From assembly GCA_030693205.1 (NCBI GenBank), contig JAUYBG010000006.1, forward strand, positions 68,015 through 132,014: a DNA stretch of 64,000 nt, read 5' to 3'. This document shows, one piece after another, positions 11,638 to 62,350 of the stretch. The DNA is from a bacterium. Its GTDB lineage: Bacteria; Patescibacteriota; Minisyncoccia; JAHIHE01. Made by a program: the position numbers and the translations under genes. The notes beneath the pieces were generated by a model. That model searched no databases and was not told where the DNA came from. It saw nothing but the letters and a program-made list of their open reading frames with translations. Position 1 is the first letter of the stretch, and every line of letters begins with the position of its first letter.

Positions 11638-13488
11638 CTATTTCTTCTTATCTTTTTCTTGAAATTCCCCCTCTACGGGGCCTTCCTTGGATTTATCATC
11701 CGCTTTTCCTTTAGGCGCTTCTCCCGCGCTTGGACCTTGCGGCTGGGCTTTATACAATTCCGCGCCTATTTTTTGCAGCGACTGGGATAATTCATCAGTA
11801 GCCTTTTTGATCGCGGCAGAATCGTCGCCGTCTTTTATTTTTTTCAAAGCGGCAATTTTTTCTTCCACTTCTTTTTTCATCGCTTCCGGCGCTTTTGCGC
11901 CCGCGTCTTTAATGGATTTTCCAGCAGTATACATCAAATTATCCGCAATATTCCGGACTTCCACCAATTCTTTTCTTTGCCGATCGGCGGCGGAGAATTT
12001 TTCCGCTTCCGCTTTCATCTTCTCAATATCTTCCTTGCTAAGTTTTGAAGAATCTTGAATGGTAATATTTTGGCTTTTACTTGTAGTTTTATCTTTCGCG
12101 GTAACCGTCAAAATTCCATTAGCATCAATGTCAAAAATCACTTCGACTTGCGGAATGCCGCGCGCTGCCGGAGGGATCCCGTCCAAAATAAATCTGCCTA
12201 ATGATTTATTATCAGAAGCCATCGGCCTCTCGCCTTGCAAAACATGGATTTCTACCGAAGTCTGATTGTCAGCCGCGGTGGAAAATACTTGCGACTTTGA
12301 AGTCGGAATAGTGGTATTGCGATTGATCAAAGGAGTAGCGACCGTGCCCATCGTCTCAATGCCAAGAGTAAGCGGAGTAACATCCAAAAGTAAAACTTCC
12401 TTCGCTTCTCCGCCCAGCACAGCGCCTTGGATCGAAGCTCCAACCGCCACGCATTCCATCGGATCCACGCCCCGCTCGATCTTTTTTCCGGCATAATCTT
12501 CCACGAATTTCTGCACGATCGGCATTCGGGTCGGCCCGCCGACCAAAATCACTTTATCGATTTGCTGAGGGGTCAATTTCGCGTCGCTAAGCGCCTGCTC
12601 CACCGGATGGCGCATTCTATCGATGATCGGCTTGATAAGAGATTCGAGCTTGGCTCGGGTAAGTTTCAAAGCTAAATGTTTCGGCCCGGCTTCATTCGCC
12701 GTAACAAACGGCAGATTAAGATCGGTTTCGAGCGTCGTGCTCAATTCAATTTTGGCTTTCTCCGCCGCTTCTCTGATCCTTTGCATCGCCATTTTATCAG
12801 CAGACAGATCAATGCCATTGTCTTTTTTAAATTCTTCAACTATAAAATCGATCAAAGCTTTGTCCATATCGGTCCCGCCCAGCTGGGTATCGCCGGAAGT
12901 GGATTCCACTTCAAAAACTCCTTCGCCAAAATCCATGATCGTCACATCAAGCGTTCCACCGCCGAGATCAAAAACCAAAATTTTCTGATCTTTGCCGACT
13001 TTATCCAATCCATAAGCCAAAGCCGCGGCCGTCGGTTCATTTATAATACGCACCACTTCCAATCCCGCGATCGCGCCTGCATCCTTAGTTGCTTGGCGCT
13101 GAGAATCATTGAAATACGCCGGCACCGTGATCACCGCTTTTTCCACTCTCTGTCCGAGATAAGCCTCCGCGTCTTTCTTGATCTTCTGCAAAATAAAAGC
13201 GGAGATCTGCTCAGGCGTATATTCTTTGCCGAATATTTTATATTTAAAATCCGTGCCCATTTTTCTTTTGGCGGCCATTACTGTTCCTTCCGGATTGGTT
13301 ACCGCCTGGCGGCGCGCCGGTTCGCCCACCAAAAGCTCGCCGGTCTTGGTAAAAGCCACCACCGACGGAAAAGCTTTTCCGCCCACAGAAGTTCCTTCAG
13401 CCGAAGGAATAATAGTCGGTTTTCCCGCTTCCATTACCGCCGCAGCCGAGTTTGAAGTTCCCAGATCGATTCCTATGATTTTTGACAT
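11638..13488 (-). CDS. dnaK: chaperone DnaK (Hsp70)
   Basis: Hsp70 signatures [27 protein letters not shown]; 616 aa. Confidence 0.95.
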
Positions 13489-13976: not shown

Positions 13977-14110
13977 TTTCTGTCATTTCGACTATAAGGA
14001 GAAATCCCTTAGAGACGACGAATACTTACAAAATAAACTACTTATCGCATAATCATGTTTGGGGAATTCCTCTTTGCCTGCTGGCAAATTCGGAATGGCA
14101 AAAAATATAT

Positions 14111-14653
14111 TTATTTTTTTGCCACTTTCACTTTCGCCGTCCTGATCACCATTCCGTTCAGCTTATATCCTTTCTGAACTTCTTCCAAAATCTCGCCTTC
14201 CTGTTTTTTACTTTCCACTATCTCTACCGCTTCGTGAAATTCCGGATCGAATTTCTCGCCGATTGATTTAATTTCTTCCAACCCTTTGCTTTTCAACAAA
14301 CTCGCCAATTGTTCTTTTAGCTGGGTCACGCCTTTTGTCCATTCTTTATCTTTCAAGTCTTCCGGAATGTGCTTCACTGCCAAAGTAAAAGTATCAAAAA
14401 TCGGAAGCAACGCCAAAATCAATTCCTGATTGGCCGCGCCCACCAATTCCCCGAATAATTCGCTTTGCCTTTTTTTATAATTTTGAAAATCCGCCATTGC
14501 TCGCTTCCAGTGGTCATGATATTCGGCTGATTTTTTCTTTTCTTCTTCCAGCTGTTTTTTCAATAGCTCTAGTTCGTTTCCGCCTTTTTCATCCTGTTCG
14601 TCGCTTGTCGCGCCTGATTTTACCCCATCATCTTCTTTTTTAGTTGAAAACAT
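14111..14653 (-). CDS. grpE: nucleotide exchange factor GrpE
   Basis: GrpE coiled-coil and C-terminal beta domain. The track start at 14680 is a GTG; the first ATG is at 14653. Confidence 0.85.
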   Translation of the reverse strand: MFSTKKEDDGVKSGATSDEQDEKGGNELELLKKQLEEEKKKSAEYHDHWKRAMADFQNYKKRQSELFGELVGAANQELILALLPIFDTFTLAVKHIPEDLKDKEWTKGVTQLKEQLASLLKSKGLEEIKSIGEKFDPEFHEAVEIVESKKQEGEILEEVQKGYKLNGMVIRTAKVKVAKK

Positions 14654-14681
14654 AATTTTTTTATTAAGCCTCGCTGCCACT

Positions 14682-14766
14682 TGTCATTGCGAGCCCTGTA
14701 CTCAGGGCGCGGCAATCTCATTTTTCGGCTATAGATTGCTTCGTCATTTCACTCCTCGCAATGACA
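14682..14766. repeat. ~85-bp palindromic element, copy 1 (12-bp terminal inverted repeats tgtcattgcgag/ctcgcaatgaca with nested hairpins)
   Basis: Near-identical second copy at 51279-51364; both sit ~30 nt upstream of a start codon (grpE, uvrB). Confidence 0.6.
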
Positions 14767-14957
14767 AAATAACGACTTTAACAAAATTCCCTAATAATTT
14801 ATTAATCTCTAAACTGCTAATCCAATTTAACATAGTTTTTAAAAAAATTCAAGAGCTTCCCTTTAAAAAAGTAACATTGAATTATACCAATTTTTACCCA
14901 TTTGTCAAGGTTTGATTTTTGTAATATAATACAAGCAATCAGTTAAACAACTTTTTT

Positions 14958-22595: not shown

Positions 22596-22684
22596 GTTTT
22601 AAAAGAACTCATCTGGCTAAATAGCTTCTATTTAGCCATCCTTCCTTGAGCACAACTCTAACAAATCCGGGAGTTTTGTCAATG
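22596..22684 (-). promoter_or_regulatory. conserved promoter plus 5'-UTR hairpin element, copy A
   Basis: Minus-strand TTGACA-16nt-TAGAGT, then a 10-bp-stem hairpin ggctaaatag/ctatttagcc and agatgagttcttttaaaa before the SD; copies at 29237-29322 and 31934-32019. Confidence 0.5.
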
Positions 22685-22780
22685 ACAAGTTGCCATATAA
22701 AATAATCTTACAAAAAACATTCCCGCATTTATATACAAGAATGTTTTAATAACCAGAATAAACCTCGCCGATCTTTCATT

Positions 22781-23098
22781 CTATTTTTCCACAATATCTA
22801 CGATTTTAATTTCGGTAAAAGGCTGTTTGTGCCCTTTGTGAACTCTTTGGCGTTCCTTTGCCTTGTATTTGGTCAAAGTCACTTTTGGCAATCTTCCTTG
22901 TTTCAAGACATCGCCGGTCACTTTCGCGCCTTTGATGACAGGAGTGCCAATGACCGTCTTGCCGTCATTGTTAATAAGCAAAACATTGTTAAAATCAATC
23001 TTATCGCCTTCCTTGACGCTTAATTTTTCCACTTTAATTTTATCGCCGGGAGAAACCAAATACTGCTTCGCTCCGGATTCAATCACTGCAATTTTCAT
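22781..23098 (-). CDS. rplU: 50S ribosomal protein L21
   Basis: Typical L21 sequence (MKIAVIESGAKQYLV...). Confidence 0.9.
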   Translation of the reverse strand: MKIAVIESGAKQYLVSPGDKIKVEKLSVKEGDKIDFNNVLLINNDGKTVIGTPVIKGAKVTGDVLKQGRLPKVTLTKYKAKERQRVHKGHKQPFTEIKIVDIVEK

Positions 23099-23306
23099 AT
23101 AAAAATAATTATCTGAATTAATATAATATTTACTTTAACAAATAATGGGTGGAATGTCAACCTCTTTAGTCTGTAAGCCCTCTTAATGCTTTACCCCGTC
23201 AGAAGTTGTAATCTAACCTTGCTTTTAAATGAAAACTGAAGGCGAAGCCGATTTATCTTTAAATATAAGGAAATAAATGAGATTTTCCTAAAACTTCTGA
23301 CCGGGG

Positions 23307-23336
23307 TTGACAAATCCTGAATTTCTGCTATACTTT
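23307..23336 (+). promoter_or_regulatory. sigma70-like promoter (TTGACA-17-TATACT)
   Basis: ttgacaaatcctgaatttctgctatact, a near-consensus -35/-10 pair. Confidence 0.35.
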
Positions 23337-23494
23337 AGATAATTTACTAACGCACTAGATTTACCTATGATTAGTTTCTGCAATCAAAGCAAAAAGGGTC
23401 AAATGCTCAATACCGGCTTAAAAACCGTGCAATTCCGCTACCGCGCGAACCTAGGCGACATAAAAGAGATGGCAGAAAAAATCTAATAGTGAAT

Positions 23495-23526
23495 CCGGTG
23501 CGGGAGCAATTCCCGTATTTTTTTAA
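23495..23526 (+). terminator. intrinsic terminator
   Basis: cgggagcaattcccg hairpin followed by tattttttt. Confidence 0.45.
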
Positions 23527-23747
23527 AAAAGGAGGGGATGTCGTTCTTTTACAATTTAAATAATTTTCTTCAGGGCAGAAATTTGATTGCACAAAAATGT
23601 AATCAATAACTGTCTTGAAGATACAAAAATCTCGAAGCAGAATGAAAATCACGAATAGGATAGAATGGGAATGTACAGAATACGAATACTTCATCTGGAA
23701 GTAAAACAGAACCGAAATAAAATAAAGCCCCTTAGGGCAGGATAAAA

Positions 23748-24536
23748 GTGATTGAAATGGTAATCAAGAAAGAAGGCAATGGCGAAGTAGGAAAAATTGA
23801 ACAGATTAAACTGCCAAAGTGGCTCGAAGAACTGATAACGAAAAAATGGTTTCTGTATCTGTTTGCCGCTGTAGTGCTTGTGATGGTTATCGGATTCTCA
23901 TTGCCGGCAAGTACGCGAGACAATATTGCAAATGCAATATTTGCTAAAACTGCAACTGATGGTTCGCTCTCGTCTGGCGGCAGTTCGTCTGGCGGCGGAA
24001 TGATGGGTAATAGTCAACCTGTAGTCGGAACGGCAACTCCAACCCCGACAGAGGGGAAGGAGAAGAATCAGATCAGTGCGGATCGTAATGACCCGATTCT
24101 TGCGCAAAGAATTAACCGTCTGGAAATAGGCGGAAAATCTTTAATGCCAATTGGCAATCTTCCGCAAGAGATAAGAATTGGAAAATCAAATCTCTATATT
24201 ACAAGCATGATTGTCAATAATAAAGTTAGCGGCTATTTAGAAAATCGTGGCGCCAATAATATAAATATAATAGGTGAAAAAAAATTCACTTTCATAACGA
24301 AAGATTATCTATATTTAACGGAATTACCTATAATTTATATAAACGGCCAAAGTAGCTCAAGCGCTTCCACCTTTTTGAAAGCTGGAGAAAAAAAATCATT
24401 CCAGACAATTGATACGCAAAACATAAACGAATATCAAAAGCTTGGAGGATTAAAAGACGATCTCTTAAAAATAAACAATTTAGTAAAACAATCCGCTTAT
24501 ATACAAATAAGCGAATTCAGCACTTCAGATGCATAA
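23748..24536 (+). CDS. hypothetical membrane-anchored protein
   Basis: 262 aa, N-terminal TM helix, Gly/Ser-rich linker. Confidence 0.5.
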   Translation: MIEMVIKKEGNGEVGKIEQIKLPKWLEELITKKWFLYLFAAVVLVMVIGFSLPASTRDNIANAIFAKTATDGSLSSGGSSSGGGMMGNSQPVVGTATPTPTEGKEKNQISADRNDPILAQRINRLEIGGKSLMPIGNLPQEIRIGKSNLYITSMIVNNKVSGYLENRGANNINIIGEKKFTFITKDYLYLTELPIIYINGQSSSSASTFLKAGEKKSFQTIDTQNINEYQKLGGLKDDLLKINNLVKQSAYIQISEFSTSDA

Positions 24537-24562
24537 GTAAGTATATGCATCTTTTTTATTTT

Positions 24563-25984
24563 TTATGGATTAACGTTGATCTGAACTCTATCCATAATAG
24601 GACCGTAACAACCATTCTTACTAGTTATTCTTAACCACCCCTCATACTTACCAGCTGCCGCATATGTCGTCGATGTCATACCTCCAGTATATGTTACATC
24701 AAATAATGCATTACCGAGAACACCTAAAACACCAAGTAATAAATCACAATTCGTTGTTTCACTTTTTGCATAATCTGATGTCCATCCTAACCATGGGGTA
24801 GTATAATCGATCTCATATCTATCTACCCCGTTATCAAAACCCGGACCATCACTGAGAACATCGGTTTTTAAATTTGGATAAGCATAGTCCGCTGAATAAG
24901 TTCTTCCATCGAAATAAACAGTTTCACCCACTTTAACGCTTACTTGTTTTCCCATAGGCATAAAAGTTGTCCCTACCCTTAAATCCGCTTTCATACAATG
25001 ATACAACCCATCGCTTGCCCAAGACGGATTTGAACAAATATCTTTGCAGGCAAGCTTTCCCGAAACAAAAATTTTCGCCGGATGTCGCGGGTAATCGGTT
25101 GCGATGCAGGCAGGAACTCCGGTAGCGGTAAAATTTACTACATTACTGGCAATAAAAGTTGAGCTGGAATACGGATCAGTTTCCGGAAAAATCGCCTGAA
25201 GTTTTACATCATCGGCACAAAATGTAGGAAGCGTAGACAAAATAGAAAAAATACCGCTAGCGTTCGTTTGTATTTGAGTATATCTCATTCCATCAATTCC
25301 TGCCCCATCATTAATAACATATACTCTTATATTGGTGTTAACCACGGGATTACCGCTTGCATCAGTAAGCTTCCCTGCCAGAGTTACAGAAGCGCCAACA
25401 GCCGCGGATGCTCCGTCTGCGGGAGAGGTTAAAGTGATTTTAGCGGGAGCATTAGGACTGACAAAAACATCTGCTTCCATATTATCTATGCAATGGCACG
25501 GCGCATTAACTGTTCCATTTCCCAATGAACCGGGTCCATCGCACATCTCAAGCGGATCGCTTGCCGTCGGACTATAACCTACCGCACTCCACGGCATCGC
25601 CGGATTTTTAAGCACTAGAATATCGGGGTTGATCGTGTTAATAATCACCCAAGAAGAAATGGCCAGAAGAAGGCCGATAATTGCCGAATTAATCGTGTGT
25701 TTGGCATCTTCGATGGCTGAAGGATTGCCGGCGGAAGTCAGATATCTTGCGCCCCCGATGACGATCGCGCCCATCGCCACAATACCGACTACGGAAATAA
25801 GAAAAGTATAAAGCCCGGAAAGATAGACTTGAACTTTTGCGCCGGGTGGAATGCCGGGAATAGTGACCAAAGCGTTATAAGTTGTCTGAGCTAAAGCGGA
25901 ATTCGAATAAAAAAATAAGCTTAGTAAAAATATAATGCTAGCTAAAACTATTTTTTTGTTTTTGCTAAAAATTTTTAAAATCAT
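24563..25984 (-). CDS. large secreted/membrane protein with an N-terminal TrbC/VirB2-like (T4SS pilin-like) domain
   Basis: Signal peptide; YLSGLYTFLISVVGIVAMGAIVIGGARYLTSAGNPSAIEDAKHTINSAIIGLLLAISSWVI pattern typical of CPR pilin-like proteins; large extracellular C-terminus. Confidence 0.45.
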   Translation of the reverse strand: MILKIFSKNKKIVLASIIFLLSLFFYSNSALAQTTYNALVTIPGIPPGAKVQVYLSGLYTFLISVVGIVAMGAIVIGGARYLTSAGNPSAIEDAKHTINSAIIGLLLAISSWVIINTINPDILVLKNPAMPWSAVGYSPTASDPLEMCDGPGSLGNGTVNAPCHCIDNMEADVFVSPNAPAKITLTSPADGASAAVGASVTLAGKLTDASGNPVVNTNIRVYVINDGAGIDGMRYTQIQTNASGIFSILSTLPTFCADDVKLQAIFPETDPYSSSTFIASNVVNFTATGVPACIATDYPRHPAKIFVSGKLACKDICSNPSWASDGLYHCMKADLRVGTTFMPMGKQVSVKVGETVYFDGRTYSADYAYPNLKTDVLSDGPGFDNGVDRYEIDYTTPWLGWTSDYAKSETTNCDLLLGVLGVLGNALFDVTYTGGMTSTTYAAAGKYEGWLRITSKNGCYGPIMDRVQINVNP

Positions 25985-26014
25985 ATTGTTTTAAAGAAAT
26001 TATCTATACCGTTA

Positions 26015-26172
26015 TTATACAATTATTGGGGTTTTTAGACAAGCGTGAACTATATATTTTCCCAAATTTTATCTTTATCTTTATCTTCCTGCCGCACCGG
26101 CAAAATTACGGTAAAAGTCGAGCCTTTACCTTCCCCTTCCGAGATTACCTTAATTTTTCCGTGACAGTACTT
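26015..26172 (-). pseudogene. histidine kinase 3'-end fragment, copy 1
   Basis: DNA-level homology to the last ~50 codons of the HK gene at 32065-34050 (cctgccgcaccggcaaaattacggtaaaagtcgagcc...); the +strand track ORF 26026-26220 is a wrong-strand artefact. Confidence 0.5.
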
Positions 26173-26850
26173 TTATTTTTTCTTTCCAATAATAATTACT
26201 CGCCGACTATTAATATTTAATTTCTCCATATCATAATTTCCATATACTGAAGATATGAATAAGTTATTATCGTTAAACTTTCTTTTAAGTTCTGGAAAAG
26301 TATAATACCTTACTCCTTTATTACTATGATCTTTGTCTACGACAAGCTCCATCTTGGTAAAATCAAATTTATATGGAGCTTTCGGATTTTCTCTTAAATA
26401 GCCGATAACCCTAAATACATTATCGCAGTCCAGTAAAAACATTCCATTCTTTTCCATTATTTTAGTAATATTTTTCAATGTTTCGTCAGGCTCAATCATT
26501 CTAAGATCAGAAAAAAATAAGAATATTTTATTATACTTTTTTTTAAGATCTAATTTATGAATATCCTGTGTAAAAAAATTTATCTCTAAATTTTCTTGTT
26601 TGGCGTGCTTTTTGGCAACCTCGATCAAATAATCGGAAAAATCCAAACCATCAATATTATATCCTCTTTTTTTAAGCTCAATAGTATGCCGTCCGTTACC
26701 GCAAGCAACATCTAATATCTTGTCTCTCTTTTTTAATTTTAAGGATTTAATAAGAAAATCAACGTCTTTTTGCAGCTGTTCCGGGGAAAAATATTCTTTA
26801 TGCTCTTCTAGATAAGAACCTTTTGGACCATAATACCGTTTTAGACTCAT
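26173..26850 (-). CDS. class I SAM-dependent methyltransferase
   Basis: Motif I (ILDVACGNGRH) and post-I acidic residue. Confidence 0.8.
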   Translation of the reverse strand: MSLKRYYGPKGSYLEEHKEYFSPEQLQKDVDFLIKSLKLKKRDKILDVACGNGRHTIELKKRGYNIDGLDFSDYLIEVAKKHAKQENLEINFFTQDIHKLDLKKKYNKIFLFFSDLRMIEPDETLKNITKIMEKNGMFLLDCDNVFRVIGYLRENPKAPYKFDFTKMELVVDKDHSNKGVRYYTFPELKRKFNDNNLFISSVYGNYDMEKLNINSRRVIIIGKKK

Positions 26851-26864
26851 AATTTTATTTATAA

Positions 26865-27608
26865 TTATATTTTTACTCCAACAATAATCATTCTCTTGCT
26901 GTTAAAATCAAAATTCTCTCCTTCATAAGATCCATAAACTTTTTTTATCCTTAAACCATTTTCTTCTAAGATTTTTTTAATTTCTGGAAAAGAATACAGT
27001 CTTAAAATATATTCGGATTTTTTTTGTTTTCCTTTTTCTGTAATTTTTAGTTTTACATGGTCTTGGAAAGTAATTGGATTAAAAGCATGATTTTCCAAAA
27101 TATTTTTTTTACCATTTTTGTATTTAAAAACACTTTTAAAATGAGATAAAAAATAACAAATATTCCGAGTGTCAATTATAAATTTCCCTTTACGATTTAA
27201 TGATTTAGAAATATTTTCAATAATTTTTCTGTTGTCGCTATCGCTAAAATATCCGAATGAAGTAAAAAGATTAAGAATAACATCAAATCTTTTTTTAAAT
27301 AAAAACTTACAAATATCCCCATAAATAAAATCTGCTTTAACGCCTTTTTCTTTGGCAATATTTTTTCCAACTCTTAAAAAAGGTTTTGAATAATCAATGC
27401 CCACCACATTATATCCTCTTTCTGCTAATCCAATCATATGTCTGCCCCAGCCACAACATAAATCTAAAATTTTGTCTTCTTTTTTTAATCTTAAAATATT
27501 AATGATAAAATCAATTTCTTTTTTGGTTCTCTTGTCGTCAAAAAGAAAATAATAAAGCTCTAAATAATCTTTATTAAAATAGTATTTCCACCAATTATTT
27601 TTAATCAT
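26865..27608 (-). CDS. class I SAM-dependent methyltransferase, paralog of 26173-26850
   Basis: ILDLCCGWGRHMIGLAERGYNVVGIDYS. Confidence 0.8.
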   Translation of the reverse strand: MIKNNWWKYYFNKDYLELYYFLFDDKRTKKEIDFIINILRLKKEDKILDLCCGWGRHMIGLAERGYNVVGIDYSKPFLRVGKNIAKEKGVKADFIYGDICKFLFKKRFDVILNLFTSFGYFSDSDNRKIIENISKSLNRKGKFIIDTRNICYFLSHFKSVFKYKNGKKNILENHAFNPITFQDHVKLKITEKGKQKKSEYILRLYSFPEIKKILEENGLRIKKVYGSYEGENFDFNSKRMIIVGVKI

Positions 27609-27681
27609 TTTATTTTTTTATTTATTAAACCTTTGGTTTATTTTAGTATAGCATAAATAAAAATTTTATCAATATAAAAAT

Positions 27682-27707
27682 AACTGTAAAATTTGAATTT
27701 TACAGTT
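27682..27707 (-). terminator. hairpin plus T-rich tract at the stop of rSAM B
   Basis: aactgtaaaat/attttacagtt perfect inverted repeat. Confidence 0.35.
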
Positions 27708-29025
27708 ATAAACTTTTTAAATTCCAGCAAGTCTGATCGGCATGAACATCATCGCCAAATTTTGACATAGATATTCCCTTGCATCCTCCATTGCACGACA
27801 AAGAAAATTTACATACTAGACATTCTTGTACTATATCCATCGAAAACGGATTTGTTTTTTCCCAAATCGAACGGATATTATTATTCGTCAAATTTCCTAA
27901 AACCGGAAGTCGCGAATGTGGACAAGGAGTAATTTTTCCGTCGAAAGTTATATTACAAATACTTCTTCCTGCTTCACATCCTCTTATTGCTTTTATAGAT
28001 TGATCTATAAGAAAAGGAAAAAATACCAATTTCTCGTAAGAAATCATTTTGGGGTATTTTTTTTCTAACAAAACCAATGTTTCGGTCGCGATTCTGAGTT
28101 GGTCGCTTGTTAATTTAGAAAGAGAATTTGCTCTTCCTTCTTGCATACATCTAAAAGCAATAAACCAGTCTATTCCTAAATCATAAACAGCTAAAAATGT
28201 TTCTTCTATTTTATCAAAGTTTAGATTATTAACCGTCATTGCGCAGCGAACATTCATTCCCTGATTTTTAAGAATCGTAATCGCTCTAATGGCTTTTTCG
28301 TATACTCCTTTTCCTCGAATAAAATCGTGTATCGTTTCTGGACCATCAATGCTTACTTGAATTACCGATAAACCTGTTCTCGATAGTTTTGCCGCTCTTC
28401 TTTTAGTTACCAATATTCCATTGGTGCTAAGCGAAACGCTGACACCTTCTTTCGTTGCTCTTTCGATTATTTCATCAAGGCAACAGACAAGCAATGGCTC
28501 TCCGCCACCAAGACCAAGATAGAATATTCCATTATCCAATAGCTGCTTTTCTATCGCAAATATTTGCTCTGCAGATAAAGCATTTTTTGTTAAACCAGAT
28601 CCTGTATAGCAATGCTTGCATCTTAAATTACAAAGATCAGTTAATTCCCAAAAAACTATTGAAGGGAATTTTAATTTGGGAAATACAATAGGTTTATCGT
28701 CTGTATTATTGGAAAATTTTTTAGTTGATAATATTATGCGTCTATTACAGCTATCAAATAAACCAATTTCTCCAATCTGATTTACGAAAGCAATAATTGT
28801 TTCATCGTTTATATTTTTATGCCTTCTTTTTATTTCCTGAACAATGTCACTAAGACTGATTTCTCCTGTGCATAATTCTATAATTTCTATTCCAATTTTA
28901 TTTACCCGAAAACATATTTGATCAGTTTCTATGGCTAGCTCTACTGGCGGTTTAACTAATCCACCAAAATTTTCTCTGCGATGGCGTACCCCTTTTGTCA
29001 AGTGTGGCTTAAAATCTTGTTCCAT
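27706..29025 (-). CDS. radical SAM/SPASM enzyme B with an N-terminal PqqD-like RiPP recognition element
   Basis: N-terminus (VNKIGIEIIELCTGEISLSDIVQEI) is PqqD-like; CNLRCKHC; SPASM C-terminus (CLVCKFSLSCNGGCKG). Confidence 0.8.
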   Translation of the reverse strand: MEQDFKPHLTKGVRHRRENFGGLVKPPVELAIETDQICFRVNKIGIEIIELCTGEISLSDIVQEIKRRHKNINDETIIAFVNQIGEIGLFDSCNRRIILSTKKFSNNTDDKPIVFPKLKFPSIVFWELTDLCNLRCKHCYTGSGLTKNALSAEQIFAIEKQLLDNGIFYLGLGGGEPLLVCCLDEIIERATKEGVSVSLSTNGILVTKRRAAKLSRTGLSVIQVSIDGPETIHDFIRGKGVYEKAIRAITILKNQGMNVRCAMTVNNLNFDKIEETFLAVYDLGIDWFIAFRCMQEGRANSLSKLTSDQLRIATETLVLLEKKYPKMISYEKLVFFPFLIDQSIKAIRGCEAGRSICNITFDGKITPCPHSRLPVLGNLTNNNIRSIWEKTNPFSMDIVQECLVCKFSLSCNGGCKGISMSKFGDDVHADQTCWNLKSL

Positions 29026-29111
29026 TATTAACCTCCATATAATTCAATTTCTTGTCTAAATAAAATATTTGGAATTATTGCCTTTTAAAAAACAATAATT
29101 CCAAAACCCGT

Positions 29112-29219
29112 CTAATCTCCGGCATAAGTTGGGAGCATTACGCATCCTGTAGATATCCTTTCTATTACTGGACTTTCTTGCTCCGAATCTTTCTCTGTCT
29201 TAGAATTTTCTAAACCCAT
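29112..29219 (-). CDS. candidate precursor peptide B (35 aa)
   Basis: MGLENSKTEKDSEQESPVIERISTGCVMLPTYAGD; gaggaggtgaaaaaATG; hairpin ggaattattg/caataattcc between it and rSAM B. Confidence 0.5.
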   Translation of the reverse strand: MGLENSKTEKDSEQESPVIERISTGCVMLPTYAGD

Positions 29220-29236
29220 TTTTTCACCTCCTCAAA

Positions 29237-29322
29237 TTTTAAAAGAACTCATCTGGCTAAATAGTTTCTATTTAGCCATCCTTCCTTGCGTATAACCCTA
29301 GCAAATCCAGGGGTTTTGTCAA
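29237..29322 (-). promoter_or_regulatory. conserved promoter plus 5'-UTR hairpin element, copy B
   Basis: TTGACA-16nt-TAGGGT and the same hairpin, with loop tttc instead of gctt. Confidence 0.5.
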
Positions 29323-29334
29323 ATACTGACTCCC

Positions 29335-29580
29335 GCTGATTACTTATATTGGGGTTTTTAGACAAGCACGAACTATATATATTCCCAAATTTTATCTTTA
29401 TCTTCCTGCCGCACCGGCAAAATTACGGTAAAAGTCGAGCCCGCGCCTTCCCCTTCCGAGACCACCTTAATTTTTCCGCCATGCTTGGCTATGATCTGCT
29501 TGGCGATAAAAAGTCCCAGGCCGGAACCGTTCGGATTGATATAATTGGATTTTTTCCCGCGTGAAAATTTTTGAAAAATC
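29335..29580 (-). pseudogene. histidine kinase 3'-end fragment, copy 2
   Basis: ~240 bp homologous to the last ~75 codons of HK 32065-34050 (ATP-lid to C-terminus), with the stop region mutated. Confidence 0.55.
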
Positions 29581-30332
29581 TATTTTAGACCACCTTTCCA
29601 TTCCTTTTCTAATTCTTCGATCGATTTTTCGAAACCATTTTCAATAATTTTTAAATTTTCCTCGGAATTATTTAATCGCGACAATCTTTGGTAAGTTTTT
29701 TTAAACTTATCCCATCCGTAAGTATTGATTAAAAATCTGACAAAAGAGCCAACTTCCGGATAAATTATTTTAGAATCAACCTTTTCCCAATTTTTATTAT
29801 CAATTAAGTTTTTGATAGAATACAGTTTTTTCTGACTCAATAACTCTTTGGAAATTATATCAATATCCTTACCGAATAAATTTCCTTCCATAAACTGAGC
29901 TAATCCCTCGCAAAACAAATATATCGATAACCCAAGGGATAAAGACAAAAAATGAGTATCTTCATGCTCGCCGATAAACTGGCATTTATCATTATAAATC
30001 GTATGAATTTCAAATTTGTTTGTTTTTGGTTCGCTATTAACTAATTCAAAATCTCCCCAAATCACATTACCAGGGCTGTCATCGCCCATTAAAGATGCTT
30101 TGCTTTTTAAGGACGGATAAATATAATAATGAATAATTTGCTTATTTTTTAAATCAAGAAACGATAAAATTTTATTGTGATGTTTTTCTTTTAGCTTAAT
30201 AATTTTATAAATATCATTTTCAGCTAAAGAATTTTTGAGATAGTAAAAAACATAATGGTTGCTTTTTTGTTTAATCCATTTTTGCCTCAAATAATCGTTT
30301 TTATACCACGGAATTTCTTGTTTTATTTTCAT
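29580..30332 (-). CDS. HExxH-motif protein downstream of radical SAM enzyme C
   Basis: IGEHEDTHF motif; 250 aa; directly after rSAM C. Confidence 0.45.
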   Translation of the reverse strand: MKIKQEIPWYKNDYLRQKWIKQKSNHYVFYYLKNSLAENDIYKIIKLKEKHHNKILSFLDLKNKQIIHYYIYPSLKSKASLMGDDSPGNVIWGDFELVNSEPKTNKFEIHTIYNDKCQFIGEHEDTHFLSLSLGLSIYLFCEGLAQFMEGNLFGKDIDIISKELLSQKKLYSIKNLIDNKNWEKVDSKIIYPEVGSFVRFLINTYGWDKFKKTYQRLSRLNNSEENLKIIENGFEKSIEELEKEWKGGLK

Positions 30333-30406
30333 ATTGATATATTAGCTTAAATATTATACCAAACAATAAAAAAATTAGCCATTATTGTGTTTAAATGGCT
30401 ATAGCT

Positions 30407-31909
30407 TTATTCAAAGTTTAATTTTACTAATCCCTTATTTATTTTTTCCACAAGTTCACGCCTGCAATATGGTTCTAATAGACTACCTATTGTTACATAG
30501 GCATCAAACCGACATCCTCCGCCACAAATAGGAACGAACGGGCAATCTTCTGAAAGACATTTATCCAGATAGCTAAAATCCATAAATTTTGCATCATCGG
30601 TATTAGCCGTTGAATCTATGTTTCCAAAAGAAAATCCATCTCTTCCTACTGTGCTTATGCATTTAAGCAATGCTCCGTCTGGCTCTATTGTAGCCGAATT
30701 TATAGCTCTCGCGGTACACCAAGGACCGACTAAATATTCTTGAGGAATTACAAATCCTCTTTTCTTTGCTTCCTTGCAAAGCCACAGATATTTATCAGCG
30801 CTCTCGCTAAAACTTAATCCAAATTCATTAAGGTAAGAGTCCGGCGCTCGCTTGCCCATATCTCCGCAAATAGTTGGAGCCACTATACCAAAAGAGAATT
30901 CTATTTTATCCTGCAGTTTATTTTCTGCCAAAAAATCAAACAGCTGCGGTATTAAATCAACATTCTGCCGGTCAAAATTGACTCTAAGGTGAATTTTTTT
31001 AACAAAACCTTGATTTATAGAACTCAAGATATTTTTTGAAATTTTATCAAATGTACCCTTGCCGTCTTTTCTGAACCTTCTTAAGTCGTGTACTTTTCCG
31101 TATCCATCAAGAGTTATCTGAACTCTATCAAGGTTGCATCCGTTTAAGAAAGAGGCAATTTCTTTATCAAAAAATTCACCATTTGTCATTATGCCGAGTT
31201 CAAGTGCTAAGTTTTTTTGCTTGGCTATCGTGTGCAGTTTTGGCAAAATAAATCTGATTGTCTTTTTATTCAATAACGGCTCGCCCCCGTACAGAACTAC
31301 TCTTAGCTTATTGCAACCAGCATGGTTACCTAGATAAGCATCACACCAATTCACTATTTCATCGGCTATTTGAATTGACATTGATTTATGTTTTTCTATT
31401 CCTCTCTCGAAACAGTAAGGGCAGGCCAGCTGGCAATTTCTAGTAAGGACAAGATATATTCCGAAAGTTTTATCATCCAATCTGGCCTTATGGAATAGCT
31501 CTTTGTATTTTAGCTTTTCGTTTAATTCCGCAGGAACGAGCATTTCCATTTTTACGAGCTCATTTATGTAATCGCCTAAATACGAACCAGTAATATTAGA
31601 TTGTCCATTGTTTGTAATTTCATCGATTTCTCTTTTTAGCCGTCCGGTTAATCTTACTGTGCTTGTAGTCAGCGTATTTCTAGCGATGATTTTATCGCTG
31701 TTTTCATATTCAATCCAAAACACAAATCGAGACCATTTCAGTTTCACATCGTTCACCTCTTTGTCATTGATATATTTTTGGGGAAGTTTTATTAAACCTC
31801 CCCCTTTGCTTATGCGGTTAATAACCGCAGCCATCTTTACCCATATCGCCGGTACGGGTTCCGGAATCAGTGCCTTTTTGGAGCACTTCAAAATCTTGGT
31901 TGCCGTCAT
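30407..31909 (-). CDS. radical SAM/SPASM enzyme C
   Basis: CQLACPYC; SPASM (CLSEDCPFVPICGGGCRFD). The track start (31909) overlaps candidate precursor C; the true start may be M26 (31834) or similar. Confidence 0.75.
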   Translation of the reverse strand: MTATKILKCSKKALIPEPVPAIWVKMAAVINRISKGGGLIKLPQKYINDKEVNDVKLKWSRFVFWIEYENSDKIIARNTLTTSTVRLTGRLKREIDEITNNGQSNITGSYLGDYINELVKMEMLVPAELNEKLKYKELFHKARLDDKTFGIYLVLTRNCQLACPYCFERGIEKHKSMSIQIADEIVNWCDAYLGNHAGCNKLRVVLYGGEPLLNKKTIRFILPKLHTIAKQKNLALELGIMTNGEFFDKEIASFLNGCNLDRVQITLDGYGKVHDLRRFRKDGKGTFDKISKNILSSINQGFVKKIHLRVNFDRQNVDLIPQLFDFLAENKLQDKIEFSFGIVAPTICGDMGKRAPDSYLNEFGLSFSESADKYLWLCKEAKKRGFVIPQEYLVGPWCTARAINSATIEPDGALLKCISTVGRDGFSFGNIDSTANTDDAKFMDFSYLDKCLSEDCPFVPICGGGCRFDAYVTIGSLLEPYCRRELVEKINKGLVKLNFE

Positions 31910-31916
31910 TGCTCAT
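31818..31916 (-). CDS. candidate precursor peptide C (32 aa)
   Basis: MSNDGNQDFEVLQKGTDSGTRTGDMGKDGCGY; the same gaggaggtgaaaaaATG context as precursor B. Confidence 0.45.
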   Translation of the reverse strand: MSNDGNQDFEVLQKGTDSGTRTGDMGKDGCGY

Positions 31917-31933
31917 TTTTTCACCTCCTCAAA

Positions 31934-32019
31934 TTTTAAAAGAACTCATCTGACTAAATAGCTTCTATTTGGTCATCCTTCCTTACAATAACCTTAACAA
32001 ATCTCAATAATTTGTCAAT
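31934..32019 (-). promoter_or_regulatory. conserved promoter plus 5'-UTR hairpin element, copy C
   Basis: TTGACA-16nt-TAAGGT; hairpin gaccaaatag/ctatttagtc (one mismatch). Confidence 0.5.
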
Positions 32020-32064
32020 CTTTAGCTTTAATGTACAAGTTATAGATTTTGCAAGTTTTATCCC

Positions 32065-34050
32065 CTATCTTCCCTGCCGCACCGGCAAAGACACGATAAA
32101 AGTCGAACCTTTGCCTTCCCCCTCCGAGATTACTTTGATTTTTCCGTGATGCTTAGCTATGATCTGCTTGGCGATAAAAAGTCCCAGGCCGGAACCGTTC
32201 GGATTGATATAATTGGATTTTTTCCCGCGGGAAAATTTCTGAAAAAGAATTTTTTTATCATCCCCGCTCAAGCCTATGCCCGTATCAGTAAAATAAATAT
32301 TCACGTTATCTTTCTCCCGCTTAACTTCAATAATCAATCCGCCTTTTTCGGTATATTTTTCTGCGTTATCTATTAAGTTCATAAAAACATTGTGAAGAAG
32401 CTTTTCGTCAGCTTCGATCTTCGGAATCTTCTGGGAAGATCTTTTGTATTTCAAATATAAATTCTTTTTTTTGAAATTAAGATTAAGCATTTCGATATTT
32501 TCCTGAAGCATCTTCCGTATATCAATTGGCTGAAAATTCAATTTTAACTCCCCTTCGCTTTCCGTCGCTGTCACCATATCGTTGACGATATTGTTAAGAC
32601 GCTCTGTATTATCCACGATTCTCGCTTTTACTTCCAACTTTTTTTCCGGAGTAGCTTTGTCAAAATCCTTGGCATTCCACATTGAAATAAATCCCCGCAT
32701 TACAGTCAAGGGAGTCCTAAGCTGGTGAGAGACGATATGTAAAAAATCACTCTTCACATCCAATGCGTTTTTAAGCTTGTCTTTGGCTATAGTAAGCTCT
32801 TCGATATTTTTATTCAAATTTTGATAAAATTGAAGGTTATCCATAACTACGCTTACATGCTGGGTAAAAGCATTGATTAGATCTAAATCTCTCGGGCTGA
32901 CTTCCGTAATTTCTTTGGTAAAAATAAAAATCAAAGCTCCTTTTTTCTCGCCTCTGATTGTCATTGGAACCGATGCGAATGTTTTTCCGCCAAGTTTCTC
33001 TTGTATCAATAGGGACGTGGGCTTATCCAACGGCGGACAAATAAAATCCGCTATGTTCGACCCTTTTTCAATTTCGTTATTGAGAATACTTTTGATAACC
33101 AGACCGCAATTTTTAGAATTTTTGCTATCAACAATCAAGCTGTAATCGCTTAATTCAGGCTTAGATAATAAACACCTTGCTTGCCTCATTTTATCTGATT
33201 CTGTGGTAATATAAGCGCAAGCTTTTCCACTATCTTCATCGTAGCGAATTAAAAATGTTCCCATAATACCAAGATGCCCGAGTTTTGCCGGCACAGCATC
33301 CATAATATTCTGCACGCTTTTTTCAATTTCCACTCCCAAAGAAACCATTTTGTTTAAAGACAGAAGGGATTCCAAATCCTGCGTTTTTTCCTCAAGATTT
33401 TTTAATTGATTTCTAATTTGTTCGTATTGACGAATATTATTGATTGCAATAGCCACTTGATCAGAAAAAGTTTTAAGCATTTCCTGCTCTTCTTGAGAAA
33501 ATTCTTTTCTGGTTGAGGTAAAGAATACTACTCCCAAAATTTTGTCTAAAAATATAACAGGAAGAGAAATACAAAGATTCATGCCCATAAATTTCTGCAT
33601 AGTATCAGCCAATGATGCATTTACAGCGGGACTGATAAATTCACTCATATGTGCCCCTACATGAATTTTTCTTGTAAGGTAAGTTTGTACGGTTAAATTA
33701 TCATCAAGATTTAATGGGTAAGTGTGTTCTTTGAATGGCTTATTCAGCCATCCGACAACTTTTTGGCCTAAATATGATTGCGTATAAGACCAAGGTATAA
33801 GTTGCTTATTAATTTCGTCAGGTAAAAACAACACTCCTCCTATGAAATCCATCTCTTCAACCATAACGTTCACCATCTTTTGGGTCAATGCTTCATAATC
33901 TTTGATAGTAACAAGCATAGAGAATATTTTCTGCAAAGTCTTGTAGCGCATCTCTTTTGAGGTTGGTTTTTCTACAAGTCTACCTTTAAATCTATCGGTA
34001 TCAATGTTTGGGAAGATAAGCTTTCTTATTATACCTTGGATTAAGTTCAT
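32065..34050 (-). CDS. cytoplasmic sensor histidine kinase (GAF-GAF-HisKA-HATPase)
   Basis: H-box HQLRTPL; N, G1, G2 boxes (NLIDNAEKYT, DTGIGLS, GSGLGLFIAKQII); no TM segments. Confidence 0.85.
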   Translation of the reverse strand: MNLIQGIIRKLIFPNIDTDRFKGRLVEKPTSKEMRYKTLQKIFSMLVTIKDYEALTQKMVNVMVEEMDFIGGVLFLPDEINKQLIPWSYTQSYLGQKVVGWLNKPFKEHTYPLNLDDNLTVQTYLTRKIHVGAHMSEFISPAVNASLADTMQKFMGMNLCISLPVIFLDKILGVVFFTSTRKEFSQEEQEMLKTFSDQVAIAINNIRQYEQIRNQLKNLEEKTQDLESLLSLNKMVSLGVEIEKSVQNIMDAVPAKLGHLGIMGTFLIRYDEDSGKACAYITTESDKMRQARCLLSKPELSDYSLIVDSKNSKNCGLVIKSILNNEIEKGSNIADFICPPLDKPTSLLIQEKLGGKTFASVPMTIRGEKKGALIFIFTKEITEVSPRDLDLINAFTQHVSVVMDNLQFYQNLNKNIEELTIAKDKLKNALDVKSDFLHIVSHQLRTPLTVMRGFISMWNAKDFDKATPEKKLEVKARIVDNTERLNNIVNDMVTATESEGELKLNFQPIDIRKMLQENIEMLNLNFKKKNLYLKYKRSSQKIPKIEADEKLLHNVFMNLIDNAEKYTEKGGLIIEVKREKDNVNIYFTDTGIGLSGDDKKILFQKFSRGKKSNYINPNGSGLGLFIAKQIIAKHHGKIKVISEGEGKGSTFIVSLPVRQGR

Positions 34051-51245: not shown

Positions 51246-51278
51246 AATATTCTCTGTTATTGCAAATTCGCTTTTTTT

Positions 51279-51364
51279 CTGTCATTGCAAGCCCTGTATT
51301 CAGGGCGAAGCAATCTCAAAACTCGACTATAGATTGCTTCGTCGCTTCGGCTCCTCGCAATGAC
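51279..51364. repeat. ~85-bp palindromic element, copy 2
   Basis: tgtcattgcaag...ctcgcaatgaca; ~34 nt upstream of the uvrB start; see 14682-14766. Confidence 0.6.
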
Positions 51365-51428
51365 AAATGAAAGTATTTACTAGTTTTATTGTAGCATTTT
51401 GGCGAACTTTGGCAAAAAAAGAAGGGGT

Positions 51429-60177: not shown

Positions 60178-60347
60178 GTTAAAGCAATGTTTAAATTTTA
60201 TTTAAAGCTCATTTTAGCGACTCAAATAAACAAGTATTTTTATTTATTCTTTTGAAGAGCTAAAATTAGAGCGAGGTGTGACTAAGCTTTTTAAAAAATA
60301 TGGTACCGTCCGAGCGTCTTTAAATAAAATTTAAACATTGCTTTAAC
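60178..60347. repeat. 30-bp perfect inverted repeat pair (60178-60207 / 60318-60347) enclosing 110 bp in the pheS-pheT spacer
   Basis: gttaaagcaatgtttaaattttatttaaag and its exact reverse complement; nested imperfect palindrome inside. Confidence 0.6.
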
Positions 60348-61991: not shown

Positions 61992-62063
61992 CGCGGGGTA
62001 GAGCAGCGGCAGCTCGCAAGGCCCATAACCTTGAGGACGCTGGTTCGAATCCAGCCCCCGCAA
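61992..62063 (+). tRNA. tRNA-Met (CAT), initiator-like
   Basis: Acceptor cgcgggg/ccccgca with a C1xA72 mismatch; anticodon loop cccataa; T-loop ttcgaat. Confidence 0.75.
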
Positions 62064-62152
62064 CTATCAAACCCATAACTCATAACATATAACTAATAAC
62101 GATAAAAAATTTTTTGTTATAAGTTATGGGTTATTGATTATGAATTGATTAG

Positions 62153-62226
62153 GCCGGGATAGCTCAGCCGGTTAGAGCGTGGGACTCATAAGCCCAAGGT
62201 CGAGAGTTCGATTCTCTCTCCCGGCA
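62153..62226 (+). tRNA. tRNA with CAT anticodon (elongator Met or Ile2/lysidine type)
   Basis: Acceptor gccggga/tcccggc; loop ctcataa. Confidence 0.7.
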
Positions 62227-62275
62227 CAAAAATCATTGATTTGAAATTTTAAAACCTGATTATTCCGCGCAAGGC

Positions 62276-62350
62276 GGACCGTTGGTGTAGCCCGGTTAAC
62301 ACGTCTCCCTGTCACGGAGAAGACCGCGGGTTCAAATCCCGCACGGTCCG
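62276..62350 (+). tRNA. tRNA-Asp (GTC)
   Basis: Acceptor ggaccgt/acggtcc, discriminator G, loop ctgtcac. Confidence 0.8.

Follow-up and report, generated by a model that had tools for sequence, protein, structure and literature searches.

Two palindromic elements lie ahead of grpE and uvrB in the window, the whole 64-kb stretch of DNA that we analysed. Both are very probably gene-less pairs of Ssn-type hairpins, non-autonomous members of the Ssn/SRM repeat system that happen to be located in the predicted 5' UTRs of the two genes. In each copy, two arms face each other across a short spacer. The positions of the copies, their arms and the neighboring features are given here in window coordinates.

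13981 to 14099, minus strand: tentative third element, possibly a decayed member of a sister variant (GCCATTCCGAA…TCGAAATGACA), identified by reading the sequence
14111 to 14653, minus strand: grpE, 180 aa from the ATG at 14653; 100% identical to P0241 and assigned to PF01025
14682 to 14766, unstranded: copy 1, an 85-nt gene-less pair of inverted hairpin motifs in the predicted grpE 5' UTR
14682 to 14718, plus strand: SRM-like arm of copy 1, with a TGTCAT tag, an ATTGC…GCAAT stem around a CCCTG/CAGGG hairpin, and TCT
14719 to 14732, unstranded: 14-nt spacer of copy 1, the position of the ssn gene in full-length relatives
14733 to 14766, minus strand: second arm of copy 1, TGTCATTGCGAG-GAGTGAAATGAC-GAAGCAATCT, with a weak local hairpin
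14825 to 14852, minus strand: promoter-like site TTGAAT-16-TTAAAT on the grpE side, upstream of copy 1, its coordinates read from the sequence
14908 to 14881, minus strand: second promoter-like site for grpE, with the consensus TTGACA-16-TATAAT
49281 to 51245, minus strand: uvrB, 654 aa, with its ATG at 51245
51280 to 51365, unstranded: copy 2, an 86-nt gene-less pair in the predicted uvrB 5' UTR, at a site orthologous to that of the gene-bearing element in relative L125
51280 to 51316, plus strand: arm of copy 2, an SRM-like hairpin with a CCCTG/CAGGG insert
51317 to 51330, unstranded: 14-nt spacer of copy 2
51331 to 51365, minus strand: second arm of copy 2, TGTCATTGCGAG-GAGCCGAAGCGAC-GAAGCAATCT
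51388 to 51415, minus strand: promoter-like site TTGCCA-16-TACAAT on the uvrB side, TG-extended, upstream of copy 2

The two copies are 84% identical in the ungapped match of a repeat finder and 84.9% identical in a global alignment. When the flanks are included in the alignment, the similarity stops at the terminal repeats. An earlier reading of this DNA, made from the letters alone (the sequence-only reading), had described two copies about 85% identical. Its coordinates for copy 1 are correct and those for copy 2 (51279-51364) are one base off. The 12-bp terminal inverted repeats (TGTCATTGCGAG/CTCGCAATGACA) and the nested hairpins (CCCTGnnnnCAGGG and GCAATCT…AGATTGC) that it reported are also present, with one mismatch in the terminal repeats of copy 2 (TGTCATTGCAAG). 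In a pattern search of the window, the terminal 12-mer, exact or with one mismatch, was found at the four copy ends only. A profile HMM built from 206 family members detected only the two intact copies in the 64 kb, with E values of 1e-12 to 1e-13. The spacer and inner-hairpin sequences are common to both copies; on the minus strand, the spacer of copy 2 reads ATAGTCGAGTTTTG and is related to ATAGCCGAAAAATG in copy 1. This indicates that the two copies derive from a common gene-less ancestor. The possible third element begins about 12 nt past the grpE stop codon. The pattern search found its right end only, and the family profile HMM gave no match to it at 13981 to 14099.

RNA folding, which the sequence-only reading had put forward as a check, gave energies of -33 to -40 kcal/mol on either strand. 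Both strands fold far better than shuffled sequences (z -5.2 to -7.3; 0 of 200 shuffles as good). As DNA, the copies fold at -21 to -24.5 kcal/mol (z -5.9 to -7.0). In the predicted fold, the element is closed by a stem of 12 bp, inside which two or three hairpins form. Taken alone as single-stranded DNA, the plus-strand arms form hairpins of -11.3 kcal/mol in copy 1 (z -4.4) and -10.0 kcal/mol in copy 2 (z -5.9). The minus-strand arms form weak local hairpins, -4.2 kcal/mol in copy 1 and -2.4 kcal/mol in copy 2.

The grpE ATG is located 28 nt downstream of copy 1 and the uvrB ATG 34 nt downstream of copy 2. Both genes are on the minus strand, and both copies have the same orientation relative to the gene, in agreement with the earlier placement about 30 nt upstream of the start codons. 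Both copies are downstream of promoter-like sites, and are therefore predicted to lie within transcribed 5' UTRs. The TTGAAT-16-TTAAAT site is conserved in two relatives, L330 and L331. The TTGCCA-16-TACAAT site is also conserved in relatives, where it is located 6-7 nt ahead of the uvrB ATG. No T-run of the kind found in intrinsic terminators follows the hairpins on either strand of either copy. An outward promoter using the terminal ATGACA as its -35 box was considered and rejected; as read from the sequence, it is marginal for grpE and absent for uvrB.

The two copies are members of a repeat family found in many bacteria. We scanned one genome per species, and also viral contigs, with the pattern GTCATTGCRAG-N50-80-CTCGCAATGAC. 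The element was found in bacteria of many phyla (at least 120 genome stretches) and in viral contigs (at least 120). The bacterial matches listed include Alpha-, Gamma- and Deltaproteobacteria, Bacteroidota, Chloroflexota, Planctomycetota, Cyanobacteria and Patescibacteria. Family members are composed of YGTCATTGCGAG, a variable hairpin, CGAAGCAATCY, a variable spacer, RGATTGCTTCG, a second variable hairpin and CTCGCAATGACR, with a median length of 83 nt. About 2 Mb of fetched DNA contained 299 convergent pairs and only about 90 unpaired arms (about 32 expected by chance), which indicates that the pair is the unit of the family. The two arms co-vary, with variants such as GTCTTTGCGAG/CTCGCAAAGAC, GTCGTTGCGAG/CTCGCAACGAC, GTCATCGCGAG/CTCGCGATGAC and TTCTGAG/CTCAGAA. 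Conservation stops 1-2 nt outside GTCAT in 272 elements, and at the element edges the palindrome extends by one or two bases (Y…R). Chimeric and half elements also occur in relatives. Searches of Rfam at gathering and permissive thresholds with the window and seven loci gave no match at the element. A full-text literature search for the terminal repeat string returned unrelated primers only.

The genomic settings of 130 elements were determined with a crude ORF call. Among them, 51 are in tandem, 21 in convergent and 12 in divergent intergenic regions. Another 29 of the 130 fall inside called ORFs; these placements are probably mostly spurious, since most of the genomes are GC-rich and some element frames are open. 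Elements are located at a median of 29 nt from the 3' end of a gene, compared to 78 nt from a 5' end. The sequence-only reading had suggested a mobile repeat with an insertion preference. Across the family, no preference for sites upstream of start codons is seen; elements occupy tandem, convergent and divergent regions and are located nearer to gene 3' ends.

Full-length members of the family carry a nuclease gene between their arms. In relative L125, the element at the site orthologous to copy 2 reads TGTCATTGCGAG…GAAGCAATCTC, a 97-aa GIY-YIG ORF, and GAGATTGCTTCG…CTCGCAATGACA. It is located about 21 nt past the conserved -10 box and 39 nt ahead of the ATG of a uvrB whose product is 82% identical to that in the window. 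The minus-strand arm of copy 2 is 87.5% identical to the left arm of this element. PF01541 is the sole match of the 97-aa ORF (E 9e-16), and its matches in Pfam and NCBIfam are generic only. The protein has thousands of homologs, 85-98 aa in length. Some database homologs with extended ends are translated through the arms, for example MSLRGVSTTKQSQ… and …GIASSLGLRPRSSQ. Repeats of this family break assemblies, and they cause spurious ORFs and N-terminal extensions in annotation.

The association between the arms and the nuclease gene was measured at 80 metagenome loci chosen by homology to the L125 protein alone, with arms counted within 150 nt. The upstream arm GTCATTGCGAG was present at 63 of the 80 loci and the downstream arm CTCGCAATGAC at 61, each with up to two mismatches, and both arms were present at 53. 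The chance expectation is about 2% per side, or about 2 of 80 loci. At the median, the full-length elements (n=56) span 383 nt, and their ORF often ends within the right arm, which then contains the stop codon (TGAGATTGC). At several loci the GIY-YIG gene is located between two complete gene-less pairs instead. Most loci without ATTGCGAG arms carry sister variants, such as GTCATTCTGAG…CTCAGAATGAC or GTCATCCCGAG…CTCGGAATGAC. Arm types are independent of the direction of the ssn ORF in full-length elements, and an attempt to orient gene-less copies by their arm types was dropped for this reason. No ssn-like gene is present in the 64-kb window, which counts against our interpretation. No GIY-YIG gene was found near the gene-less elements in any of the 240 stretches listed (120 genome, 120 viral; about 2 Mb), which likewise counts against it, and none was found in 33 viral stretches with NTS-type repeats.

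The nuclease gene is related to ssnA of Neisseria. SsnA of N. meningitidis is a 94-aa single-domain GIY-YIG protein and the founding member of the site-specific single-stranded DNA nucleases (Chenal et al., Nat Commun 2025;16:2388, PMC11893778). It binds the NTS hairpin repeat (CGTCATTCCCGCGMAVGCGGGAATCYRG) as single-stranded DNA only, and its cut is about 3 nt 5' of the NTS, a position that we derived from the published oligonucleotide lengths (PMC11893778). The characterised Ssn enzymes share binding to hairpins in single-stranded DNA only and a cut on one strand, a few bases 5' of the tag (PMC11893778). The repeats bound by SsnA also flank its gene, an NTS-ssnA-NTS arrangement that the authors likened to insertion sequences and to REP/RAYT; the mobility of Ssn elements was left open (PMC11893778). 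Of the published ssn genes, 42% are flanked on both sides and 71% on at least one side (PMC11893778). Many kinds of bacteria encode homologs of Ssn (CDD cd10448) and have Ssn-related motifs that belong to them, and Patescibacteria are not named in the text (PMC11893778).

The L125 protein is homologous to a Neisseria ORF flanked by NTS repeats. In a 7.3-Gb plasmid collection, tblastn with the L125 protein matched two N. gonorrhoeae chromosomes, at one place per record, with 42.6% identity and an E value of 2e-15. This is within the published threshold for Ssn homology, tblastn E < 1e-10 (PMC11893778). In a pairwise BLASTP comparison, the L125 protein and the N. gonorrhoeae 94-aa ORF are 43% identical over 88 aa (E 2e-27). 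The ORF sits among 9 repeats matching the published SRM pattern. Its length and this setting lead us to take it for the ortholog of SsnA.

The arms of the family resemble the published repeats in their overall architecture. In the family, as in Neisseria, a gene for a single-domain GIY-YIG protein of about 95 aa has inverted hairpin repeats on both sides (53 of the 80 metagenome loci). The family and SRM repeats share a 5' (Y)GTCAT tag, a stem of the form ATT…/…AAT and a 3' TCY, and both occur in numerous copies that are almost all intergenic and spread across phyla. The plus-strand arms in the window have an unpaired TTGTC, a stem that begins at ATT and an unpaired 3' end, which is the layout of the NTS (-8.9 kcal/mol as single-stranded DNA). 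The edge of conservation in the family, 1-2 nt outside GTCAT, is close to the derived NTS cut position about 3 nt 5'.

Differences are found in the stem interior and in the arrangement of the arms. The stem interior is ATTGCGAG…GAAGCAAT in the family, usually with an extra inner hairpin, whereas it is ATTCCCGCG…GCGGGAAT in the NTS. The main unit here is a convergent pair, with the gene exactly in the loop of the pair. The tags point outward here and inward in the two NTS nearest the Neisseria gene, a difference that counts against our interpretation. The published SRM pattern, HGTCWYN(0-2)YYVSBRHN(0-5)WNVSBRGN(0-2)RNCYNB, has 9 matches at the N. gonorrhoeae locus and 0 in the window, in the four window arms and near any of the 81 GIY-YIG loci, and this also counts against it. 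The window arms have the HGTCWY tag and, by eye, the 3' part of the motif. The pattern fails because the stem interior is GCGAG (not YYVSB…) and the inner hairpin is longer. Membership in the Ssn system therefore rests on protein homology and shared architecture rather than on the published motif definition.

These comparisons are consistent with the following mechanism. Each arm consists of a 5'-YGTCAT tag, an ATTGC…GCAAT stem with a variable inner hairpin, and TCY, and a 14-nt spacer separates the two facing arms. Complete members of the family have, in place of this spacer, an Ssn-family gene of about 95 codons that encodes a single-domain GIY-YIG nuclease. The pair would then be the non-autonomous form of an Ssn/hairpin repeat element, much as a REPIN is to the RAYT transposase. 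It could be kept and multiplied in trans by an Ssn nuclease whose gene is located at another place in the genome or was present in an ancestor. Copying would be driven by Ssn cleavage, and the source genome would have an ssn gene. The window copies may be old insertions into the stretch that separates the promoter from the start codon, where a compact Patescibacteria genome would tolerate them as it does in few other places, and any effect on the expression of grpE and uvrB would be incidental. A nuclease alone is incapable of strand transfer, and no Ssn element is known to be mobile. Both points count against this interpretation.

The sequence-only reading had considered a MITE- or REP-like mobile repeat. 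This proposal is largely borne out by the cross-phylum family, the filled and empty sites and the nuclease gene of full-length relatives. The element is not a classical MITE, however, and its associated enzyme is a GIY-YIG Ssn-type nuclease, neither a DDE transposase nor a RAYT. There are no target-site duplications in the 272 elements; direct-repeat matches are at control level (4 vs 2.8 at k=3, 1 vs 0.7 at k=4), so the target-site duplications that had been suggested as a check were not found. A classical MITE, dependent on the DDE transposase of an insertion sequence with the same terminal inverted repeats, would fit the 12-bp terminal inverted repeats, the small size, the many copies and the intergenic location. 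However, it is expected to leave target-site duplications. In addition, the sole gene found between the arms is the 95-aa GIY-YIG nuclease, no element with a DDE transposase was seen, and the arms differ from the terminal repeats that transposases bind in being internally structured hairpins whose inner core is conserved. We therefore consider a classical MITE highly improbable.

A REPIN, that is, a REP pair mobilised by a RAYT (an IS200/IS605-like tyrosine transposase), was also considered. REP/REPIN elements and RAYT transposases were reportedly described by Nunvar in 2010 and by Bertels and Rainey in 2011. They share with the family the inverted hairpin pairs, the non-autonomous and intergenic nature, the one repeat-flanked gene and the absence of target duplications. 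However, the flanked gene encodes an HUH/Y1 transposase there and a GIY-YIG nuclease (PF01541) here, and no RAYT was found between the arms. The 5' tag is GTCAT, compared to the GTAG/CGTC tags of REPs. REPINs and RAYTs are vertically inherited and lineage-specific, whereas sequences of this family are nearly identical across phyla and also occur in viral contigs. Of all the readings weighed here, a true REPIN is the one to which we give the least credence.

Other known systems were also compared with the element. Minimal GIY-YIG proteins of the UPF0213/Slx1-like group are of the same size and have a single domain, and the relationship is distant. To our knowledge, flanking repeats have not been reported for UPF0213 proteins. 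They are regarded as vertically inherited housekeeping nucleases (PMC1564403). The closest solved structures to the L125 protein by sequence are 1zg2 (BH0048; E 1.4e-6) and 1ywl (EF2693; E 1.1e-3). Correia elements and Rickettsia palindromic elements are similar in size, palindromic and abundant, and in transcribed regions they can alter expression. Correia elements are distinguished by a TA duplication and Rickettsia palindromic elements by in-frame insertion into genes, and neither has a sequence relationship to the window element. An attC site was rejected, since the GTTRRRY core was not seen by eye. The conserved cores of hammerhead and other small ribozymes were likewise not seen by eye, and there was no Rfam match. 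The element is neither CIRCE nor a LexA box, as the sequence-only reading had stated; the CIRCE motif TTAGCACTC-N9-GAGTGCTAA is absent by eye.

Orthologous sites in relatives are filled in some and empty in others. The relatives identified through UvrB bear names such as Moranbacteria and Parcubacteria. The sites are listed below, with the identity of the UvrB or GrpE protein in brackets.

uvrB site, window: gene-less pair
uvrB site, L125 (UvrB 82%): full-length gene-bearing element
uvrB site, L124 (UvrB 85%): element end 21 nt ahead of the ATG; the contig breaks inside the repeat
uvrB site, L121 (90%), L122 (88%) and L126-128 (78%): without the element
grpE site, L331 (GrpE 76%): orthologous copy
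grpE site, L330 (GrpE 78%): empty

In L122 and L126-128, the conserved promoter is 6-7 nt ahead of the uvrB ATG, indicating that uvrB is apparently leaderless there. In L126, an element is located between two nuo genes, 22 nt ahead of the downstream ATG. Filled and empty sites differ beyond the element itself, by an extra ~20-35 nt of flanking sequence on each side, and this excess counts against our interpretation. At grpE, a segment of about 20 nt is seemingly present on both sides of the insert.

These sites bear directly on a second proposal of the sequence-only reading, that the element is a cis-regulatory structure shared by grpE-dnaK and uvrB, which would place both under common control through an RNA thermometer-like fold of the 5' UTR or through a protein operator. 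The proposal is supported by the position of both copies in predicted 5' UTRs, 28-34 nt from the start codon and in the same orientation, by their very stable RNA folds, and by the higher conservation of the grpE copy in L331 compared to its flanks (93% vs 75%). However, the element is absent at grpE in L330 and at uvrB in L121, L122 and L126-128. Shared control of the heat-shock and DNA-damage genes is not supported, given relatives with 78-90% identical GrpE or UvrB and no element, and the copy in the nuo spacer. The same orientation of two copies is a 1-in-2 chance event. At the family level, and within the limits of the crude ORF call, elements occupy every intergenic setting, including that between convergent genes, and are located nearer to gene 3' ends; the sequence-only reading had itself named scattered copies as an argument for a selfish repeat over a regulatory element.

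The folds of the predicted 5' UTRs also argue against regulation. The element folds as a self-contained unit without pairing to the start region, which is not sequestered. Outer-stem mismatches in full-length elements are G:T in 14 cases and A:C in 17. The two are about equally frequent, and nothing thus indicates that either strand is under selection as RNA. An RNA thermometer or other 5' UTR riboregulator was rejected, as the 28-34 nt ahead of the ATG are outside the fold, the element is missing in close relatives, and no Rfam family matches it. Overall, a shared cis-regulatory structure appears very unlikely.

The conservation of the copies was analysed between orthologous loci. The grpE copy is 93% identical to its ortholog in L331 and 85% identical to the uvrB copy, compared to about 75% for the flanks and the grpE coding sequence. 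From these comparisons, the window copies are judged to be old and to evolve more slowly than their surroundings. This could reflect constraint by the nuclease or the structure, concerted evolution, or a host role. The difference between 93% for the grpE copy and about 75% for its flanks was counted against our interpretation, as it could mean a function at the level of the host.

A repeat of selfish origin with a secondary role for the host would be compatible with our interpretation of the origin. The element might stabilise the grpE and uvrB mRNAs by forming a stem-loop at their 5' ends, or it might be a target through which Ssn influences the recombination or uptake of these loci as single-stranded DNA. 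In Neisseria, NTS and SsnA modulate natural transformation (PMC11893778). The higher conservation of the element than of its flanks between orthologous grpE loci, and the retention of an element at the uvrB site in three lineages, are consistent with such a role. Insertion also turns an apparently leaderless uvrB into a leadered one, which must affect its expression somehow. However, nuclease constraint, the palindromic structure or gene conversion between copies could equally account for the conservation, and the empty sites in equally close relatives indicate that the element is dispensable. We consider a host role unlikely, less so than shared regulation.

The preferred reading of the copies as non-autonomous Ssn-type pairs can be extended by a further step, which is tentative. 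The ATTGCGAG-type pair with ssn in its loop would be an autonomous mobile element and the gene-less pair its miniature, together forming a transposon class driven by a 95-aa GIY-YIG nuclease. We regard this as possible but less likely than not. If it is true, the outward tags would place two cuts just outside the ends of the element, and the uvrB series from the window, L125 and L122 would be comparative evidence of gain and loss. Frequent horizontal spread would then be suggested by the near-identity across phyla and by the occurrence in viral contigs. In a further step of this reading, the fixed copies in the grpE and uvrB 5' UTRs would have been co-opted.

The analysis has implications for the window and for the Ssn family. 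In the window, it removes the attractive idea of a common regulator of heat shock and DNA repair. Censuses of SRM repeats by the published pattern probably undercount them, as the abundant ATTGCGAG type and its TTCTGAG/TCCCGAG sisters are missed. The missed variant is present in many phyla, in Patescibacteria and in viral contigs. The filled, empty and gene-bearing series at uvrB, the pair architecture and the co-varying arms provide material for testing the mobility of Ssn elements.

The site upstream of grpE was compared between the window (14654-14830) and two relatives, one in which the site is empty (L330:3896-4003) and one in which it is filled (L331:3800-4003). The empty site contains one copy of a segment of about 20 nt resembling GGCAnTTAGAGATTAATAA. 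In the filled sites, this segment seems to flank the insert on both sides, and about 33 additional nt are present 5' of the element, a gene-less inverted pair of hairpin arms that are probably of Ssn type.

A candidate third element is found directly downstream of grpE, on the minus strand at 13981-14099. It reads GCCATTCCGAA-TTTGCCAGCAGGCAAA-GAGGAAT … GGGATTTCTCC…TCGAAATGACA, and is possibly a decayed copy of a sister variant. The grpE-dnaK spacer of L331 contains one half element and one complete TTTCGAG/TTCAGAATGACA-type element. In the relative L126 (8317-8439), a chimeric element joins a left arm of the GTCATTCTGAAC…GAAGAATCCC variant to a GGGATTGC…CTCGCAATGACA-type right arm, which suggests that the variant families recombine with each other.

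Full-length relatives of the element carry a GIY-YIG nuclease gene between the arms. The top plasmid homolog of the 97-aa nuclease from such an element in the related genome L125 is located on Planktothrix agardhii plasmid p1 (L366; NZ_LR882964.1, 18847-19131), with 58% identity. Arms of the GTCATTCTGAG type lie on either side of it, and downstream the start of the arm recurs in a short tandem array. Its neighbors are an MmeI-type restriction-modification gene and the DISARM gene drmA, one on each side. L125 also contains a second, unrelated GIY-YIG gene of 80 aa (11680-12320), surrounded by repeated tRNA-like fragments containing an inserted GC-rich hairpin, CCCCGCCTGAGCGGGGTCCCGCTGCGGCGGGA.

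A repeat search also revealed several families of long direct repeats at 22597-32246 and an inverted repeat about 1.6 kb upstream of a tRNA cluster.

Other repeats and the tRNA cluster in the window
22597, 29237 and 31934: 86-nt direct-repeat unit
26074, 29391-29405 and 32059-32073: direct-repeat units of 88-174 nt
60178-60347: perfect 30-nt inverted repeat, 110 nt between arms
61992-62350: three tRNA genes

The long direct repeats point to two or three genes duplicated in tandem, whose upstream regions resemble one another.

An arm-like sequence, AGTCATAGCGAGTCCGGCGCCGCAATCTTT, is located within the uvrB coding region (50376-50407, plus strand; nhmmer E 0.009). It could be a chance match or an old embedded arm.

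The uvrB 5' region of the window (51246-51415) was compared with the empty sites L122:760-860 and L126:1080-1150. In these element-free relatives the uvrB mRNA is probably leaderless, because the ATG is only 6-7 nt past the -10 box. In the window, the equivalent promoter stands about 140 nt from the ATG, with no obvious Shine-Dalgarno sequence in between. In a further relative (L123:3100-3205), a different palindromic insert, composed of CCCCGTCGCTCGCGAGCGACGGGG and about 35 nt, has a copy of the promoter and of the initial ~45 nt of uvrB on either side. Within this clade, the 5' region of uvrB resembles a hot spot for insertions.
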